Shown in pieces: positions 7,918-63,177 of a DNA stretch of 64,000 nt. The notes beneath the pieces were generated by a model. The model was not told where the DNA came from, made no database searches, and saw only the letters and a program-made list of their open reading frames with translations. How positions within the stretch are numbered: the stretch's first letter is position 1; every line of letters starts with the position of its first letter. The stretch is taken from the NCBI GenBank assembly GCA_022822625.1, contig JAJEAV010000005.1, positions 9,965 through 73,964 on the forward strand. Reading direction: 5' to 3'. A program made the translations under genes and the position numbers. The DNA comes from Gammaproteobacteria bacterium. GTDB lineage: Bacteria; Pseudomonadota; Gammaproteobacteria; Arenicellales; Poriferihabitantaceae.

Positions 7918-8835
7918 TCAGAACTGTTGGTTATCGCCTTGATCGTATCCGGGGGCGATAACGAGATTTTCAACTCCATAGAGTGCTGGCCTGTTTTTTA
8001 GCCAGAGGTGGTATTCCGGTCCTTTCAGGATATGGTCTTGGGTGCAGTCCACATTCCATCTCCGAAGTGCATAGCCTGCAACCGCAGCCCTTACCTTGAC
8101 ATTCAACACGCCGTTTTTCATCGCATAGTCGGCTTCAATTGTTTCTGGATGCTTGAGATTTGGGTGCGGTACAAGTTCCAGTTCCAGAATTCTATTCCAC
8201 TGAATATCCGATTCACGAGTTTCATGTTCACCAATCGGACTGTCGATAATCATGGGGTTGGAAATGCGGGTGACAACGAAATCGGAAAATCTCGATTGTT
8301 TTCGATCATAGCTCCGGATGTGCCAGCGTAGTCCGTTATCGACCAGTACAAACGGAACAATTTCGCGGGTAGTCTTGCCGCTGCTAAGAGAGTGATAATC
8401 AATCCTTATCACTTTGTCCTGGTGTATGGCGCGGGTCAAAACCGACAGGGTTGAGAGTGATGGCCTGTTCATCTGCATGGGCGTCTCGCACGAAATTAAC
8501 GCCCGGTTTGCACCAGCAAAGTCGCTTCCAAAGCCATGTGTAAGTGCTGACAAAACCTGGTTAGACGAAGCATCGTATAGAGGCGAGAAAAGGTCTGAAC
8601 GTTCATAAGTCTTGGCCTTGGTATCGTACCTTAGATTGGTTGGGGCCAGTTCCCTGTACAAGGTTATATCCCTGGTTGCCGCTGCTCCCTTGATGCCAAA
8701 TCGGGTCACAAGGTCGTTGCGACTGATGGTTCCCAGAAAACCGATTCTGAAATCGATGTAGGCGAGACGTTCTTTCTGCGCCTTTGCAATGACTTTAGCT
8801 GGGGTAGGAGGAAGTTGATATCCGATTTCCATCAT
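7918..8835 (-). CDS. wHTH-WYL transcriptional regulator (BrxR/CapW-like)
   Basis: N-terminal ERLAYIDFRIGFLGTISRNDLVTRFGIKGAAATRDITLYRELAPTNLRYD (wHTH pattern of BrxR/CapW) and a WYL core VIRIDYHSLSSGKTTREIVPFVLVDNGLRWHIRSYDRKQSRFSDFVVTRI. 305 aa. Confidence 0.75.
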   Translation of the reverse strand: MMEIGYQLPPTPAKVIAKAQKERLAYIDFRIGFLGTISRNDLVTRFGIKGAAATRDITLYRELAPTNLRYDTKAKTYERSDLFSPLYDASSNQVLSALTHGFGSDFAGANRALISCETPMQMNRPSLSTLSVLTRAIHQDKVIRIDYHSLSSGKTTREIVPFVLVDNGLRWHIRSYDRKQSRFSDFVVTRISNPMIIDSPIGEHETRESDIQWNRILELELVPHPNLKHPETIEADYAMKNGVLNVKVRAAVAGYALRRWNVDCTQDHILKGPEYHLWLKNRPALYGVENLVIAPGYDQGDNQQF

Positions 8836-8926: not shown

Positions 8927-9090
8927 TGAATAACATCTTGCGGCAGTTACCGGATAAAAAGGATTTCGCGCAAGACAAGAGTCACGAAAAGGTTTTTCAT
9001 TTTTACGCACAGAATTATACATAACAAAGGCTTCGCCCTCTTGTCCAATGGAGTGTTAACTGGTGATTGCCTTCGCTGAAAGAGACAACG

Positions 9091-9549
9091 ATGGATAACA
9101 ATCAATTACGTTTCGTCCCCTGCGATGCAGGGTGTGGGATGTCCATTTGGACCAGGACTCCCAATGGAAAAGATTGCAGGATTGACCTTGGACGATCTGC
9201 CACATTCTCGCCAGTCAAGTACTTTCCAAAACACAACCTGAATCATTCGGTCGATTTCCTGACTCACCGCCATACGCCACCTGGGAGTGGTGTATATGCA
9301 AAATACCTGTCAGGACATGGGCGTCAATACAAAAACCTGACTGGAAAATTCTTGTCGTCATGCTTCATTGAAGAGGTGGCGTGCACCTGTTCCAGAATGG
9401 AGGAATGGTGTAGGGATAATATGAAAACAGCATCGGGAGGTATTGCAGCAAGGGCCTCGGGCCTTGCTTTTCGCATTAACGAACTGAAATCAGTCTTCGC
9501 CAGATTTCCTCTTAACGGAGGCCCTGCCTTGTCTGCTCTTGTACTGTAA
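9091..9549 (+). CDS. Hypothetical protein; half-length paralogue of the downstream MBL-fold-like protein
   Basis: LRFVPCDAGCGMSIWTRTPNGKDCRIDLGRSATFSPVKY parallels LHFTLWDVRRGISIWIRTPNGQDHWIDLGRIPEFSPSKY of the next ORF. It carries LTHRH and ends where the C-terminal half of the paralogue would begin. Confidence 0.5.
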   Translation: MDNNQLRFVPCDAGCGMSIWTRTPNGKDCRIDLGRSATFSPVKYFPKHNLNHSVDFLTHRHTPPGSGVYAKYLSGHGRQYKNLTGKFLSSCFIEEVACTCSRMEEWCRDNMKTASGGIAARASGLAFRINELKSVFARFPLNGGPALSALVL

Positions 9550-11095: not shown

Positions 11096-11515
11096 ATGAA
11101 AAGAGTCTTATTAATTGCAATAGCTGTATCTGTGTTGACCGGATGTTTCGATGATGCAAAATTGGCATCACGAAATTTAAGCAAGGCTGCCGACAATTTT
11201 GAAGTCATGCGCCGGGTAGTATTCATGAATGGAATAACTGATGCCTACATGCTGGAGATAGTTGGTTTGTGTTCAATTACAGACCAGGAGCATCAACTCG
11301 AAGTTACTTGTAAAAACGGTGATCAGTACGTTAAGCATTTTCTGGGTCTAAGTGACAATGTGACCTATTTCACCGAGCAGCTGACCGCGATAAACGTTTC
11401 GGCAAGTCATTATCGAGTTACTTTCAAGCCGCAGGCGATTATTCCTGATTTTGATCTACGAGGTAGTTTTGAGGAGTTGATCACGAATAGTTCAGAAATC
11501 AATAGTCAAGGGTAG
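11096..11515 (+). CDS. Lipoprotein (phage/plasmid-type small beta-rich lipoprotein)
   Basis: Signal peptide with lipobox MKRVLLIAIAVSVLTG|C, and RBS ggaga. From memory, ASRNLSKAADNFEVMRRVVFMNGITD...LGLSDNVTYF...YRVTFKP resembles lipoproteins seen on plasmids and prophages. Confidence 0.6.
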   Translation: MKRVLLIAIAVSVLTGCFDDAKLASRNLSKAADNFEVMRRVVFMNGITDAYMLEIVGLCSITDQEHQLEVTCKNGDQYVKHFLGLSDNVTYFTEQLTAINVSASHYRVTFKPQAIIPDFDLRGSFEELITNSSEINSQG

Positions 11516-11577: not shown

Positions 11578-11814
11578 ATGGCAAGACCGGAACTGGTCAA
11601 ATCTCTCTATAAACTCCTTGGCATTGATCAAAGTCTGCCATTATTTCAGGAATCAGAGATATATCTAATTCTCAAAAATGTCACTTATAGAGTAGATAGG
11701 CTGAAGACTGAATCAACATTGCTGATACCGCTTTGTGAAAGCGGTGAGTTGATGATTGTCGGGGCGGAATACGATCTCAAATCCGGCGAGGTGGATTTCT
11801 CTTTGGAGAGTTGA
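11578..11814 (+). pseudogene. Possible C-terminal remnant of a beta-carbonic anhydrase
   Basis: NVTYRVDRLKTESTLLIPLCESGELMIVGAEYDLKSGEVDF resembles the beta-CA C-terminus (NVxxQVxxLxxSPxL...GxLxIxGAxYDLxTGxV). The zinc-binding N-terminal two thirds are absent. Confidence 0.3.
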
Positions 11815-12096
11815 TTAGTGATGGGCATAGTTGGTTACAATACCATTAGAAGCAACGATGATTTCTCAATCTGGTTTTGTGTAAATAATGGGACCTTGGC
11901 ATGATATCTATTGATTTATTGCCATTCTCCAATACTTGGTTTGATTATGGCCGTTTGTAGCTTTGGAGATTCACAGTGCTCTGCTGGCGATGCAAGGCAT
12001 GCTTGGTATTCAGAAATACAATATTCCTCAAAAAAATAATAGGGTTAGTTTTTTGACTCGGCAAACGACAATAATATACAAAACGAGGTCAAGTTT

Positions 12097-12737
12097 ATGA
12101 GTAAGGCGAGAGGAGTAAGGCGAGAGACGATCTTGAGAATTCTTTAAAAGGCAAGACTTTTGGAACAGTTTTAGCAGATCCGCCTTGGCGGTTTACCAAC
12201 AGGACCGGGAAGGTTGCTCCTGAGCATCATCGTCTTTCTCGGTATGGAACATTGTCCTTCGAGGAAATAAAGGATCTACCTGTTATCGACTTGATGGAAG
12301 ATGTAGCACACTGTTATCTATGGGTTCCGAATGCACTGCTGCCATATGGCTTGAATACGCTTGCCGCATGGGGGTTTCAATACAAGACCAACTTGATTTG
12401 GCATAAAGTCAGAAAGGACGGCGGATCAGACGGGCGAGGGGTTGGTTTTTACTTTCGCAACGTCACAGAAGTGGTGTTGTTTGGAGTTAAAGGGAAAAAC
12501 GCCCGGACTCTACCTCCAGGGCGAAGCCAGGTTAATTTGATTGCTGCCCGAAAGCGTGAGCATTCTCGTAAACCTGATGAGCAATATGACCTGATTGAGA
12601 GATGTAGCTGGGGCCCGTACCTCGAATTATTTGGTCGAGGCACGCGAGAGGGGTGGACAGTCTGGGGTAATGAAGCAGTCAAATATCAACCCGACTGGCC
12701 AACCTACCCATACAACTCTGCTGTTGCAGCTCAATGA
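12097..12737 (+). pseudogene. MT-A70-family DNA methyltransferase (DPPW), frameshifted by a 14-bp tandem duplication
   Basis: FGTVLADPPWRF (DPPW at 12177-12188) and downstream HCYLWVPNALL...EHSRKPDE. ATG 12097 runs into TAA 12145-12147. Removing one 14-nt copy restores a 208-aa ORF. Confidence 0.8.
12099..12126. repeat. Perfect 14-bp tandem duplication (gagtaaggcgagag x2)
   Basis: 12099-12112 equals 12113-12126, checked base by base. Confidence 0.95.
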
Positions 12738-13482
12738 AAACCATTGCGGATCTAAAGGATGTAGGATTTGACATTCATGCCGTCAATCACGCTATGGCGG
12801 TTCTAACGAAGGACTTCCCTGACCCTTTGGGAGAATTATGCTCAGCCCTTCTTGATATCCATATTCCAGATGTAGAGTTGGTCAAGTCAGGAGGTGGTGA
12901 ATCGCCGGTTACACAAAGACTGCGCAGGGAATTAACAGAATTGAACTGGCTAAAGCGAAGGGTCGTAATCAGAAAAACAGTTGACAATGTCGAGAGACAT
13001 TCAATCACACATGAGATTGATCACATGAGATTGATCACATGAGGGTGACTGAAAAAGGAGTAGTTGCATTAGAGATCGAGTGGAACAACAAAGATCCGTT
13101 TTTTAATCGTGATCTTGATAATTTCCAGCGACTGCATAGCGAGGGGGCAATTAGCGTTGGTGTCATTGTTACCCGTGGTAGTTCTCTTCAGGAAAACCTA
13201 ATCCAAATCATAAGTGCATGCGTTATGAGGCATAAAGTTGCAGAGTTCGGGGATTTGGAAATGCATTACGATTGGGTGCCGACTCCAAGACAACGTAACA
13301 ACATGAGGGATAAAAAGGGAGACTTTGGCCAGGAGTGGGTCAAGCAGTTCGTTAAAGACAAATTTGGACAATCGACCACACACTGGAAAAAATTGCAGGA
13401 TAGGATAAAGCGCGGAGTTGGCAACCCATGTCCATTACTTTTGGTCGGTATACCAGACACAGTTATTTATCAAGGGAAATAA
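12734..13482 (+). pseudogene. Type II restriction endonuclease (BamHI/BglII-like PD-(D/E)xK), split by a 14-bp tandem duplication
   Basis: HEID...VALEIEWNNKDPFFNRDLDNFQRL...GAISVGVIVTR parallels BamHI ID...VGMEFETGNISSAHRSMNKL...GEIDLAIILMP. The track shows two ORFs (12734-13042 and 13039-13482). Removing one repeat copy fuses them in frame (244 aa). ATGA overlap with the methylase stop. Confidence 0.65.
13008..13035. repeat. Perfect 14-bp tandem duplication (cacatgagattgat x2, plus a partial third copy cacatgag to 13043)
   Basis: 13008-13021 equals 13022-13035, checked base by base. Confidence 0.95.
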
Positions 13483-13601
13483 CTAACACAAAATAACGAG
13501 CGAGGCATAGCCAAAACGCTTTCCAAAAGTAGAAGTACCGCTAAACATATCGGGTCATTGACAATTGCATGTTCAGTACAGTAACTCGCTGGAAATTCGA
13601 T

Positions 13602-14378
13602 TTATTCGATAAACTCGAATAGCCATTCGGTTAATTTCCCGGGTTCTTCGGCGTGTAGCCAGTGTCCTGAATCTGGCATAGTCTGAATGCTTGAGTTTGG
13701 AAACTGTTCTGCGATGAGACTGTAGTGCTCAGGAAGAATATAGTTTGAATTGCCACCCCGAACAAAAAGAATCTCGGCATCAGAAACATTGCCTTTCGAA
13801 TATCCAAACAGTAGGCTTCGGTTATTGGCAATTGCTTCAAGGTTGATTCTCCAGGCAAACCCACTTTCGTCTCGTATCAGGTTTTGGAGCAGGAATTGCC
13901 TGATTGATTGATCTGGAATGTCCAGTGTCAACATTCGGTCTGCCTCGTTTCTTGAATGAATATTCTCAAGGTCAAGTTTTCCCAAGGCACTAATAAGTTC
14001 ATCATGATCATGGGAGTAGTCAACCGGTGCGATATCAACAATCACGCATTTGTCCACTTCAGGTTGATGATGTTGCAGGTAAGCCATCACGACCTTGCCT
14101 CCCATACTGTGTCCAATCAAAAGGGGTTTTGCTAGGTGGCTGTTATGGATGAATGCTGCGAGATCTTCGGCCATATCCGGATAGCTCATCGAGTCTCTCC
14201 ATTCTGATTTCCCATGATTGCGAAGATCAACGCAAAAAACAGAAAATCGAGCAGCGAGTTTTGAGGCGATTGTTCGCCAGTTGCTGGATGAGCCAAACAG
14301 TCCATGCAGGATAACCACCGATGGATTTGATGGCTCTCCCATGTGGATTGAATTCAGATTGACGATCATCTGTTGCAA
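13602..14378 (-). CDS. Alpha/beta-hydrolase esterase (YbfF-like)
   Basis: VILHGLFGSSSNWR, nucleophile elbow GHSMGG, a C-terminal DSGHWLH motif; 258 aa. Confidence 0.8.
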   Translation of the reverse strand: MQQMIVNLNSIHMGEPSNPSVVILHGLFGSSSNWRTIASKLAARFSVFCVDLRNHGKSEWRDSMSYPDMAEDLAAFIHNSHLAKPLLIGHSMGGKVVMAYLQHHQPEVDKCVIVDIAPVDYSHDHDELISALGKLDLENIHSRNEADRMLTLDIPDQSIRQFLLQNLIRDESGFAWRINLEAIANNRSLLFGYSKGNVSDAEILFVRGGNSNYILPEHYSLIAEQFPNSSIQTMPDSGHWLHAEEPGKLTEWLFEFIE

Positions 14379-14391
14379 AAATATTATTGGC

Positions 14392-14429
14392 TTTCGAAAT
14401 AATATCGAAATTTCGAAATAATATCGAAA
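14392..14429. repeat. Perfect 19-bp tandem duplication (tttcgaaataatatcgaaa x2), intergenic
   Basis: 14392-14410 equals 14411-14429. It lies between the stop of the SRAP gene (14430) and the start of the esterase gene (14378). Confidence 0.95.
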
Positions 14430-15107
14430 TTAGCCGGTATTTGTACCTTGTTCAGGGTTGATCAAATGTGAACCCTGATTGGCCGGCCGGTTAACCTGTC
14501 TGCTAACCGGATAAGATTCAAATTCATCAGGATGTTGTAACATTGAAATGATGTGGAGCCAGTTCCTGCCTTTTTTGAGCCAGTCAAGGGCATGATCATG
14601 ATTTACTCTGACAGGCATGCGGGAGTGAATTTTGGCCAATTCCCCCATAGCTGAACGGGTAATGATGCTGCACGAATACAGCGGTTCGGTATTTTGTGGC
14701 CAGATGTCCCAGATTCCGGCAAGCATGATTGGTTCATCAGCTGCCAGATGAATGAAGTAAGGCTGTTTTCCTGAATCTTCATTTTTCCATTCGTAATATC
14801 CCCGGATAGGGACCAGGCAGGTTCTTGATTGTTTCCATGCTGTTCGGAAAGCAGGCTTCTCGGAAAGTGTTTCGATTCTTGCATTAAAGGTGGAGAATTT
14901 TGGGTTTATTTCCCTTGACCATGAAGGCACTAGTCCCCATCGCATTGACTGACCGGTTGGCCTGTTATTGTGGTGGTCATAGGTCAGTACTGGAATGTTG
15001 CCATTCGGAGCCATGTTGTAACTGGTTTCGCAGCCGAAAGGCCAGTCGACCAGCATTTCTTCCCAGGAACCGGGGTTGTCAATTTGATTTGCGAATCGGC
15101 CACACAT
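14430..15107 (-). CDS. SOS response-associated peptidase (SRAP/YedK family, abasic-site processing)
   Basis: N-terminal MCGRF catalytic Cys2 motif and 225 aa, which is typical of the SRAP family. Confidence 0.9.
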   Translation of the reverse strand: MCGRFANQIDNPGSWEEMLVDWPFGCETSYNMAPNGNIPVLTYDHHNNRPTGQSMRWGLVPSWSREINPKFSTFNARIETLSEKPAFRTAWKQSRTCLVPIRGYYEWKNEDSGKQPYFIHLAADEPIMLAGIWDIWPQNTEPLYSCSIITRSAMGELAKIHSRMPVRVNHDHALDWLKKGRNWLHIISMLQHPDEFESYPVSRQVNRPANQGSHLINPEQGTNTG

Positions 15108-18053: not shown

Positions 18054-18701
18054 TTGATATGTTATGAAAAGCAAGTTGCTGAAGAATCTGCCATGAAAGA
18101 AATACCACCCTGGATTTGGATTACCGCAGTTTTTACGATGACTGGAATTATTTTTGCTATTGGAAAATGGGTAGGGAATGTCAACTCCGACAGAAAATCC
18201 TTCGAGGAATTCATGAAGAGGGTTGAAGAGAAGATTGAGAAAATAAATGACAAATTTGAGAAAATGAATGACAAATTAGAAAAAATATTTCATTTTCTTC
18301 CTAATGAACCACTTGAGAAAAGAACCAGTCCAATATCTTTGACGGACTATGGCAAGAAACTATCACGGGAGATTAGTGCATCAGAAATTTCCGACATGGA
18401 ATTGACTAATGTAGCTGGGCAGGTTAAAGATTTGAATGCTTATCAAATTCAGGAGTACTGTTTTGAGTTTGCCAAAAACGAATTGCTCAAGAAGCTAAAG
18501 GAAAAGCATCTGGATTTCTATGACAAGATACATGAAGTAGCTTTTCATGAAGGTATAGAGGTAGAAAAACTTACACGAGTTATAGCTTTGGAGTTGAGAG
18601 ACAAAATTTTGTCCACTCTAAACAGGCCTCATTCTGAAATTGGAGCCCGCTTCTTAATTCTGAACATGCCTGAAGGAACGCAATGTCCGAATAATGCATA
18701 G
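18054..18701 (+). CDS. Hypothetical membrane-anchored coiled-coil protein (AT-rich orphan)
   Basis: TM helix WIWITAVFTMTGIIFAIGKWV followed by a heptad-like KRVEEKIEKINDKFEKMNDKLEKIF. ATG 18093 (MKEIPPW) is the more likely start. I recognise no family. Confidence 0.5.
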   Translation: MICYEKQVAEESAMKEIPPWIWITAVFTMTGIIFAIGKWVGNVNSDRKSFEEFMKRVEEKIEKINDKFEKMNDKLEKIFHFLPNEPLEKRTSPISLTDYGKKLSREISASEISDMELTNVAGQVKDLNAYQIQEYCFEFAKNELLKKLKEKHLDFYDKIHEVAFHEGIEVEKLTRVIALELRDKILSTLNRPHSEIGARFLILNMPEGTQCPNNA

Positions 18702-19018: not shown

Positions 19019-20779
19019 TTACCTTTTCTTCGGCATATACAGGTCCGTGATCGTTCCCTCAAAGGCCTCGGCAGCAAAACCAAGAGTCTCCGCCAGAGTC
19101 GGATGTGCATGGATCGTCAGTCCAATATCTTCGGCATCGGCGTTCATTTCGATAGCGAGACCCGCCTCGGCGATCAAGTCTCCGGCATTGGTGCCGGTAA
19201 TACCTGCACCAATGATACGATTGCTCTGGTTGTCGAACAGCAGTTTGGTAACACCCTCGTTTCTGCCAAGAGCCAGGGAGCGGCCGCTGGCAGCCCAGGG
19301 AAACACTCCTTTTCCGTAGTCTAGACCTTTTGCCTTGGCTTCGGTTTCAGTTACACCAACCCACGCGACTTCAGGGTCTGTATAGGCCACTGACGGAATT
19401 ACCCTGGCTTCAAAGCTGCTCTTCATGCCAGTAGCAACTTCTGCTGCGACCTTTCCCTCATGGACGGCCTTGTGTGCCAACATGGGTTGTCCGACAATAT
19501 CTCCGATGGCAAAAACATGACCAACATTGGTTCTTTGTTGATTGTCGACCGCAATAAACCCTCGTTCATCAACATTGATACCGGCCGATTCGGCACTAAT
19601 CTCCTTTCCATTCGGCATACGTCCTACACAGACCAGAACTTTATCGAAGATCATTGAATCTGGCGCATTCTTTCCTTCCAGGCTGACTTCAAGCCCCTCT
19701 TTACTGGCATTGATGCCCTTGACTCGCGTCTCCAGCCAGATGTTCGCATATCGCGACTTGATTCGCTTCAACAGAGGTTTAACCAAATCCGGGTCGGTTC
19801 CTGGCATCAGGTTTTTCATCATTTCAACAATATGGATTTTGCTGCCTAGCGAATGATAGACCGTAGCCATTTCAAGTCCGATAATGCCCCCGCCGATAAT
19901 GAGAAGATCATCAGGAATGTCGGTTAATTCCAGCGCCCCGGTCGAATCAATCAGACGTGAGTCATCATGAGGAAAGCCCGGTAACTCTACGGGACGGGAA
20001 CCTGCGGCAATAATCGCCTGATCAAAAGTTACAGTCTGACCGTTATCCAGGCTGATCGATCTGGAAGAACTGAATCTGCCAGTTGCCTGAACTACGCGAA
20101 CCTTTCTTTTCCTGGCAAGCCCGGCAAGCCCTCCCGTCAGTTGACTGACAATATTGTTCTTCCACTTCAATGTCTGTGTGATATCCAGTCTGGGATGTTC
20201 GAAAAGAACTCCGGCTTCGCTGATCTCTTCGCTTTCGTCAATCATTTTGGCAACGTGCAGGAGCGCTTTTGAAGGGATACATCCGACATTCAAGCAGACC
20301 CCGCCCAAACTCGGGTAGCGCTCAACCATGATTACGTCAAGACCAAGATCTGCCGCCCGGAATGCAGCAGTATAGCCACCGGGCCCAGACCCCAATACCA
20401 CTAGTTGTGCATGCATGTCACCTTCAACTTCAAGTGCGTCAGAGCCGGGTTTTCGAGTTTCGACAGGAGTCGAACTTGTCTCGACAGATTCTGCTTCTTT
20501 TTCTTCAGTCGTTTCCTCTGGAGTTGACTGCTGGTCGGTAGTTCCATCGATATCCAGTTCAATCAGGGGATGACCCATGGACACCGGGTCGCCTACGGAG
20601 ACCAGTAACTTGACGACAGTACCCCCTTCAGGCGAGGGGATTTCCATGATCGCCTTATCGCTCTCAATGGCCAGGATATTATCTTCTGCTTCGACCGTAT
20701 CTCCTTCCGAGACATAGATTTCAACAATCGGGACATTTTCAAAATCTCCCAAATCCGGTGTTTTTATTGTTTTTGCCAT
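19019..20779 (-). CDS. lpdA: Dihydrolipoyl dehydrogenase (E3) with N-terminal lipoyl domain
   Basis: N-terminal lipoyl motif ESDKAIMEIPSP, FAD motif GSGPGGY, redox-active CLNVGCIPSK; 586 aa. Confidence 0.9.
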   Translation of the reverse strand: MAKTIKTPDLGDFENVPIVEIYVSEGDTVEAEDNILAIESDKAIMEIPSPEGGTVVKLLVSVGDPVSMGHPLIELDIDGTTDQQSTPEETTEEKEAESVETSSTPVETRKPGSDALEVEGDMHAQLVVLGSGPGGYTAAFRAADLGLDVIMVERYPSLGGVCLNVGCIPSKALLHVAKMIDESEEISEAGVLFEHPRLDITQTLKWKNNIVSQLTGGLAGLARKRKVRVVQATGRFSSSRSISLDNGQTVTFDQAIIAAGSRPVELPGFPHDDSRLIDSTGALELTDIPDDLLIIGGGIIGLEMATVYHSLGSKIHIVEMMKNLMPGTDPDLVKPLLKRIKSRYANIWLETRVKGINASKEGLEVSLEGKNAPDSMIFDKVLVCVGRMPNGKEISAESAGINVDERGFIAVDNQQRTNVGHVFAIGDIVGQPMLAHKAVHEGKVAAEVATGMKSSFEARVIPSVAYTDPEVAWVGVTETEAKAKGLDYGKGVFPWAASGRSLALGRNEGVTKLLFDNQSNRIIGAGITGTNAGDLIAEAGLAIEMNADAEDIGLTIHAHPTLAETLGFAAEAFEGTITDLYMPKKR

Positions 20780-62724: not shown

Positions 62725-63177
62725 CTATTCGGGATCGGGAATCACTGCGGTCGCCTCAATCTCCATCACCCACTCAGGTCTTGCCAGGCCCTGGACAATG
62801 AGCCCGGTCGATACCGGGTAGATGCCTTTCAACCACTTGCCAATTGCCTGATAGACATCATCGCGATACTTGCGATCGATGATATAGACCTGGATTCTGC
62901 AGATGTGTTCCAGTCTGGCGCCCACTTCCTCGAGTAATTGTTGCACATTCTGCATCGCTCGATCGGCCTGTGCATAGGCACCTTGTTCAGCAATGCTCTT
63001 GAAGTCATCGATATCCTGACCAACCTGTCCCCGTACAAAAACCATGGTGCCTTTTGCGCAGACCACCTGGCACAGATCGTTGTCGAGTTTCTGGTTGGGA
63101 TAGGTATCTCTTGTATTGAATTTGCGATGGCGGTAATGGATGCGATGGCGGTAATGGATATCACTCATGACGGACAT
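62725..63177 (-). CDS. RidA/YjgF-family protein with an internal 6-aa tandem duplication
   Basis: C-terminal ...VSTGLIVQGLARPEWVMEIEATAV is typical of RidA. The N-terminus contains IHYRHR-IHYRHR. Confidence 0.75.
   Translation of the reverse strand: MSVMSDIHYRHRIHYRHRKFNTRDTYPNQKLDNDLCQVVCAKGTMVFVRGQVGQDIDDFKSIAEQGAYAQADRAMQNVQQLLEEVGARLEHICRIQVYIIDRKYRDDVYQAIGKWLKGIYPVSTGLIVQGLARPEWVMEIEATAVIPDPE
63124..63159. repeat. Perfect 18-bp tandem duplication (gcgatggcggtaatggat x2), in frame within the RidA-family gene
   Basis: 63124-63141 equals 63142-63159, checked base by base. Confidence 0.95.

Follow-up and report, generated by a model that had tools for sequence, protein, structure and literature searches.

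Type II restriction-modification (R-M) genes inactivated by frameshifts are common, for instance in Helicobacter pylori and in many other genomes. In type II systems, loss of the methyltransferase (M) while the restriction endonuclease (R) is active kills the cell, which is known as post-segregational killing. Phasevarions, involving mod and hsd genes in Haemophilus, Neisseria and Helicobacter, depend on simple-sequence repeats whose units of 1-5 nt form long tracts, and strains share these tracts as such. For cap3A of Streptococcus pneumoniae, tandem duplications are described that switch the capsule ON and OFF (Waite et al. 2001 as summarised in PMC11163986).

Here we describe an M-R gene pair in a 64,000-nt stretch of a gammaproteobacterial genome (the window, to which all coordinates refer), in which both halves of a type II R-M cassette, and not M alone through a single frameshift, appear from the sequence to be disabled. 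The locus resembles the common frameshift-inactivated type II genes in that the pair lies in a variable island, the lesions are small indels, intact orthologues occur in close relatives, and related lineages have repeatedly and independently lost the cassette. It departs from the usual causes of inactivation, namely homopolymer slips, nonsense mutations and IS elements, as M and R each carry a perfect 14-bp tandem duplication. Like in phasevarions, the copy number of a repeat within an ORF sets the state of an R-M gene, but here there are two copies of a 14-nt unit and the orthologues are without a tract. With cap3A the locus shares a spontaneous, perfect, ORF-internal tandem duplication that shifts the frame, abolishes function and could in principle be precisely reverted; unlike cap3A, it comprises two genes that would need a safe switching order, the target is a defence system and not a capsule, and the case is known from assemblies alone. 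In the literature on tandem duplication combined with restriction-modification we did not find a direct precedent. Functionally, the locus is a pseudogenised type II R-M system and thereby an event of a familiar type.

A duplication behind the start codon closes the methyltransferase frame

An initial annotation had described a perfect 14-bp tandem duplication directly after the start codon of an MT-A70 methyltransferase gene, and our re-analysis agrees with this description. Both copies of the unit are perfect (TRF: period 14, 2.0 copies, 100% match; Table 1), and translation from the ATG at 12097 ends at TAA 12145-12147. The frame of the enzyme, which encodes ...FGTVLADPPWRF..., is open but shut on its upstream side by TAA 12102-12104, and its first ATG, GTG or TTG is TTG 12252, which lies past the DPPW motif. 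Removal of one copy yields an uninterrupted 208-aa ORF starting with MSKARDDLENSLKGKTFGTVLADPPW... The assignment to the MT-A70 family, which had been proposed for the frameshifted gene, holds for this repaired protein: it covers PF05063 completely (1-172/172, E 9e-28, 97.8 bits versus a cut-off of 23.9 in Pfam), matches MTase_II of PADLOC (E 1.7e-90) and finds MT-A70/METTL3 chains in the PDB (E 4e-20 to 1e-15). In NCBIfam, a model was absent for both the M and the R protein.

The position of the start codon matches that of intact homologues, which begin with MSxxxDDL, and over the 90 bp preceding the ATG the sequence does not differ from that of the related strain represented by contig L001. 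Inspection of 12097-12177 revealed neither an X XXY YYZ slippery site for a -1 shift nor an alternative or non-canonical start. An intact ORF with the catalytic motif is thus not found for M in this genome. Judged from the sequence, M is a pseudogene of the MT-A70 family here, and the reading frames indicate that an active methyltransferase cannot be made from the two-copy gene.

A perfect 14+14 repeat is expected by chance about 2e-4 times per window (64000 x 4^-14). Allowing 2 mismatches, a search of the window brought up no further occurrence of the unit, and 0 of 100 shuffles had at least two matches. Exact-pattern scans with the one-, two- and three-copy alleles and with the upstream 29-mer gave zero matches in genome contigs and in JGI metagenome contigs; the close relatives discussed below were found solely via a protein collection.

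Table 1. Positions of the cassette, of neighbouring genes in the island and of the tandem duplications within the 64-kb window (strand "." where no strand applies).
Feature	Position	Strand	Basis or remark
Variable (defence) island with the cassette	~7100/7850-13600	.	blastn synteny; absent between conserved flanks in L003 and L004
WYL/BrxR-type regulator	7918-8835	-	in island
160-aa ORF before the PDC-M48B-like gene	9067-9549		first ~58 residues 53% identical to the N-terminus of the 303-aa ORF, then divergent
PDC-M48B-like candidate defence gene, 303 aa	9539-10450		in island
VG64-like lipoprotein	11096-11515		in island
78-aa ORF, 3'-end remnant of a beta-carbonic anhydrase gene	11578-11814	+	weak match to the C-terminus of Pro_CA
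Shine-Dalgarno-like GAGG	12085-12088	+	8 nt upstream of the M start codon; read from sequence
Frameshifted M remnant ORF	12097-12147	+	ATG, 16 codons MSKARGVRRETILRIL, TAA
Copy 1 of the 14-bp unit GAGTAAGGCGAGAG	12099-12112	+	TRF and direct reading
MT-A70 N6-adenine methyltransferase body, without usable start	12105-12737	+	DPPW 12177-12188; TGA 12735-12737
Copy 2 of the 14-bp unit, derived extra copy	12113-12126	+	single copy in L001 and L090
R N-terminal fragment (residues 1-99 + LIT + stop), holds D96	12734-13042	+	102 aa; also in L082 and L083
Second 14-bp tandem duplication, unit CACATGAGATTGAT, 2.6 copies	13008-13043	+	TRF 100% match; one copy in L001 and L090
R C-terminal fragment from Met98, holds E109 and E111	13039-13482	+	147 aa; ATGA overlap with the stop of the N-terminal fragment
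19-bp unit TTTCGAAATAATATCGAAA, x2.1, partly palindromic	14392-14431	.	51-bp spacer between SRAP stop and alpha/beta-hydrolase start
18-bp in-frame perfect duplication	63123-63159	.	doubles IHYRHR (codons ~7-18) in the RidA/L-PSP-family ORF 62725-63177 (minus strand)

The endonuclease gene is split by a 14-bp duplication of its own

When the entire window was scanned for perfect tandem duplications, a second 14-bp case emerged about 900 bp downstream of the first. It lies in R, directly downstream of M, at the junction of two overlapping ORFs, and had been overlooked in the initial annotation. M and R are adjacent and co-oriented, and the TGA of M overlaps the start of R (ATGA 12734-12737), the arrangement of a type II R-M gene pair. 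If one copy of the unit in R is deleted, both ORFs fuse to a single one of 244 aa, which matches PF09195 (Endonuc-BglII in Pfam) from 1-162/163 with 95.2 bits.

An AlphaFold (AF2) model of R built from 34 homologues (pLDDT 87) has BstYI (1vrr/1sdo) as its top Foldseek matches with a probability of 1.00, and D96, E109 and E111 are invariant in the alignment of these 34 homologues. In contrast, phmmer against PDB sequences gave no significant match, so that the relationship to BstYI emerged at the fold level only. With profile, predicted fold and acidic motif in agreement, R can be assigned to the BglII/BstYI family of restriction endonucleases. It shares with these enzymes the full-length PF09195 domain, a predicted fold closest to BstYI and the residues D96/E109/E111, and it is unlike BstYI in its sequence identity of about 13%, its partner M of the MT-A70 type and an allele split in two.

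The split between the two ORFs does not cost R a single residue. However, the break falls within the strand spanning residues 86-100 and parts D96 from E109 and E111. In the model, this point belongs to the beta-hairpin on which the catalytic residues sit, and the nuclease is therefore most probably dead. Each of the two duplications causes a +2 frameshift of its own gene, and since both M and R carry such a lesion, the result would be a double knock-out of the defence cassette. As loss of M next to an active R is lethal, the split R should be inactive, and R would have been disabled before or together with M.

We also considered that the system might still be active, with the R fragments assembling into a functional nuclease and M being produced via ribosomal frameshifting or its protective role taken over by another methyltransferase. 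That R is split without loss of residues and that the overlapping ATGA at 13039-13042 couples the two ORFs translationally fits such a scenario, but the region behind the M start codon offers neither a slippery site nor an alternative start, the split cuts the catalytic beta-hairpin, and an active R without M would kill the cell. We therefore regard continued activity as very improbable. A search for an orphan methylation motif, as had been proposed on the basis of the M lesion, is unlikely to find one because R is broken as well. A scan of the 64-kb window for avoidance of palindromic hexamers as a trace of the recognition site resulted in counts too small to point anywhere.

The duplications recur in three assemblies

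Looking up the exact 102-aa N-terminal fragment of R, we found it recorded in two further assemblies: L082, the 95-kb ENA scaffold_422 of sample SAMN22237344, and L083, a 27-kb Logan contig of run SRR16351689. Both carry the duplications in M and R as well as a 19-bp duplication farther downstream (see below). Relative to the window, L082 has 9 substitutions and L083 has 1, and neither alignment contains a gap. The source data are Illumina metagenomes of Caribbean Ircinia sponges, for which the authors used MEGAHIT as assembler (PMC9531527). Exact look-ups of neighbouring proteins for more samples of the strain led to the same two assemblies only.

Could the real genome contain a single copy of each unit, with the second one being an artefact of assembly or sequencing? 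That the metagenomes were assembled from short reads (MEGAHIT; PMC9531527) and that the strain is present in only one or two read sets leaves some room for this idea. On the other hand, all three duplications occur in three assemblies produced by different software, a structure of 28-36 bp fits well within one read, and a de Bruijn assembler should not be able to invent junction k-mers that are missing from the reads. Besides, the lesion is not of the homopolymer type, a point made before for M and now strengthened by the agreement of three assemblies. Given the size of the structure relative to single reads and the concordance of the three assemblers, an assembly artefact is very improbable.

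Intact relatives mark the duplications as derived and recent

The best homologue of the repaired M (P0001, 98% identity) is an intact 208-aa protein encoded on the 2.5-kb metagenome contig L001, on which the unit occurs exactly once; this provides the comparison with a related strain that had been suggested for M. The gene order on L001 is the same as in the window, with M (208 aa), R (244 aa) and an alpha/beta hydrolase on the other strand, and both M and R are intact. Over 11909-14378 the nucleotide identity is about 96%, and the only sizeable indels are the two 14-bp units, each of them present once in L001. In the complete genome of a sister species (L090, OZ241374.1), the cassette is found at another chromosomal site with 84% nucleotide identity and again one copy at both positions. 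Since L001 and L090 are single-copy at both sites, the duplications are derived in the lineage of the window.

Comparison of the repaired genes with L001 gives dN/dS values of 0.10 for M and 0.26 for R at a dS of 0.08-0.10, which suggests that both genes were under purifying selection during most of their divergence from L001. These low values, the perfect state of the repeat copies and the lack of any further lesion in M and R jointly argue for a recent inactivation.

The ancestral state also helps to understand how R was hit. In the ancestral R, as in L001, CACATGAG forms an 8-bp direct repeat with a spacing of 14 bp, and since this repeat pre-existed, the R duplication can be explained by classical replication slippage. 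The boundaries of the M duplication show zero microhomology.

A relocated cassette in a variable island

The host is a gammaproteobacterium whose Era protein is 82-87% identical to those of 'Candidatus Poriferihabitans' and of sponge-symbiont MAGs of the Arenicellales. The conserved flanks directly adjoin each other in the sister species L003 and L004, and the region from ~7.1-7.85 to 13.6 kb is therefore a variable island. Besides the cassette, it holds the genes listed in Table 1, among them a 160-aa ORF (9067-9549) that is possibly a partial duplicate of its neighbour or another decayed gene of the island. Beyond the island, the window consists of dense coding sequence with long ORFs, which makes the damage locus-specific and not a sign of genome-wide decay.

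The 78-aa ORF upstream of M has 78.5% nucleotide identity to the end of an intact Pro_CA gene that precedes the M-R pair in L090. This similarity, together with the intact Pro_CA gene in front of the pair in L090, indicates that the cassette has moved with a piece of its neighbour.

Homologues of the cassette are very widespread and number in the thousands, with identities of 75-83% for M and about 60-65% for R, and the M-R pair itself is found in L001, L084-L086 and L090. In L090 (4379-5585; likewise in L089 and L091), M has a 1-bp deletion leading to a 133-aa product and R a CAG>TAA nonsense mutation leading to a 194-aa product, an independent, parallel decay of the cassette. On the sponge-metagenome contigs L084-L086, the MT-A70/BglII-like pair follows directly downstream of an IS1595-family transposase. 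Both genes are reduced to fragments in L086 (3348-4843). In L084 (1908-4218) and L085 (71-2381), the called M ORF of 152 aa starts past DPPW, and the frame containing DPPW stays open upstream. Several related copies of the cassette are thus degraded or look incomplete, with M in L084 and L085 possibly truncated.

A recently inactivated cassette or a reversible OFF state

Taking these data together, we consider it probable that the locus is a type II R-M cassette which a gammaproteobacterial symbiont of Ircinia sponges acquired horizontally, which lies in a defence island and which was recently inactivated. In this scenario, each gene would have gained an extra copy of its own 14-bp stretch and thereby a +2 shift; R would have been duplicated by slippage between the 8-bp direct repeats, and for M, lacking flanking microhomology, the origin would be less clear. 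R would probably have been inactivated first, or else together with M, or would already have been harmless, and M could then have become dispensable.

An alternative is that the two-copy state represents a reversible OFF position, in which gain of a copy turns the genes off and its precise loss by slippage turns them on again, resulting in a slow switch of the whole R-M system with which a population could toggle restriction, for example to admit foreign DNA. Perfect tandem repeats are the kind of frameshift that is most easily reverted, and both lesions belong to it; M and R are otherwise undamaged at low dN/dS, the 8-bp direct repeat at the R site favours the forward event, and cap3A, as far as it is summarised in PMC11163986, sets a precedent for an ORF-internal switch by tandem duplication. 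Nevertheless, there are only two copies of 14 bp and no simple-sequence tract, and, other than expected for a contingency locus, a tract is not conserved among the orthologues: L001 and L090 have one copy and L084 and L085 lack the sequence. The repeat-prone sequence is likewise unconserved, with CATATGAG in L090 and unrelated sequence at this place in L084 and L085. All three assemblies (3/3), which cover a single strain and sample, have two copies at both sites, and the exact repaired M and R proteins are absent from a collection of 15 billion proteins. In addition, relatives lose the cassette through irreversible mutations, and turning on R before M would be lethal, so that independent switching of the two genes would be a poor design. 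Overall, a reversible OFF state appears quite unlikely.

Further duplications and their possible origin

Two more perfect duplications with longer units are found in the window. The 19-bp duplication is located about 900 bp past the R site in the spacer in front of the hydrolase gene, where it could alter a promoter or operator. The related species L002 and L043 have 17-18 nt less here, fitting one copy, and the 19-bp duplication is therefore derived as well. Three derived duplications (14, 14 and 19 bp) thus lie within 2.3 kb (12099-14431). The 18-bp duplication at 63123 keeps its reading frame, and the exact 150-aa RidA-like product of this ORF is not on record elsewhere. As a separate observation, the ORF 18054-18701, which is without a Pfam match, contains a 21-bp tandem repeat of 2.5 copies with 87% match at 18235-18287.

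Across 1.4 Mb of related loci, we counted 13 perfect duplications with units of 10-40 bp, just 1 of them with a unit of at least 14 bp. For units of at least 14 bp, the 4 cases in the window compare to 0.046 expected per 64 kb, an approximately 90-fold excess (Poisson P ~2e-7), which may reflect an unusual mutational process or episode rather than ordinary slippage.

One way to account for this excess is a local mutational episode or special process behind the three clustered duplications and perhaps also behind the one at 63123, with the loss of R-M as a by-product or as the selected outcome. It could have consisted of error-prone gap-filling or template switching in the course of the recombination by which the island was installed or rearranged, or of fill-in of staggered nicks. 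Such an origin would fit with three of the four duplications lying within 2.3 kb at or just past the right edge of the island, with three of the four having a microhomology of 0-2 bp, and with the end of the L001 alignment at the 19-bp duplication (~14375-14390). However, the numbers are small, as about 73 kb of the genome are covered and the extra 9 kb contain no such duplication; ordinary slippage at the 8-bp repeat accounts well for R; selection for loss of function would likewise cluster frameshifts in R and M; and units of 14, 14, 18 and 19 bp do not indicate an enzyme with a fixed stagger. We consider an episode of this kind unlikely. It would account for how the lesions arose and does not conflict with the probable explanation of their effect given above.

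A stronger version would attribute the duplications of 14, 14 and 19 bp and the 18-bp one at 63123 to one lineage-specific process that generates perfect copies largely independently of microhomology, and that the bacterium or selection would employ to turn off both parts of the R-M system in a precisely undoable manner. Staggered-nick fill-in and template switching in recombination at the island borders would be candidates for it. We judge this version to be decidedly improbable. That R and M are enriched in duplications can be put down to selection for loss of function, which accounts neither for the intergenic duplication nor for the equal lengths. The equal length of 14 bp in two adjacent genes remains an unexplained coincidence, which also weighs against our preferred reading of a recently inactivated cassette, as do the third derived duplication, the excess of such duplications in the window, the lack of microhomology at the M site and the split of R without loss of residues at a translationally coupled junction.

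Footprints of transposon excision were rejected as a source of the duplications: the units differ (14/14/18/19), a transposase is absent in and beside the island, and R has its 8-bp repeat. In the 21-kb locus L007 of 'Candidatus Poriferihabitaceae', we noticed four perfect duplications of 11-13 bp (593-622, 18078-18099, 19433-19457 and 20138-20163). The rate there is far above that of the other related loci, and the sites lie partly in repetitive coding sequence. These repeats may hint at a family-wide tendency; as support for a lineage-wide signature, however, they were discarded, as units of 11-13 bp partly in repetitive coding sequence are uninformative.

Implications

For annotation, the called ORFs of 147, 102 and 147 aa are to be regarded as pseudogene fragments. 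The significance of the locus would increase in two cases. If the duplications are gained and lost within the population, they would constitute a tandem-duplication switch of a whole R-M system; and if a signature of 14-19-bp duplications holds genome-wide, the finding would also gain in weight. Under our preferred reading, the locus provides a well-polarised example of the loss of a selfish or defensive type II R-M system, in which both genes are hit, the event is recent, the intact allele is available from a sister strain and a sister species shows independent decay of the cassette. R-M genes are reported to be enriched in sponge symbionts (PMC9531527), and the loss described here bears on the turnover of defence systems in these organisms.
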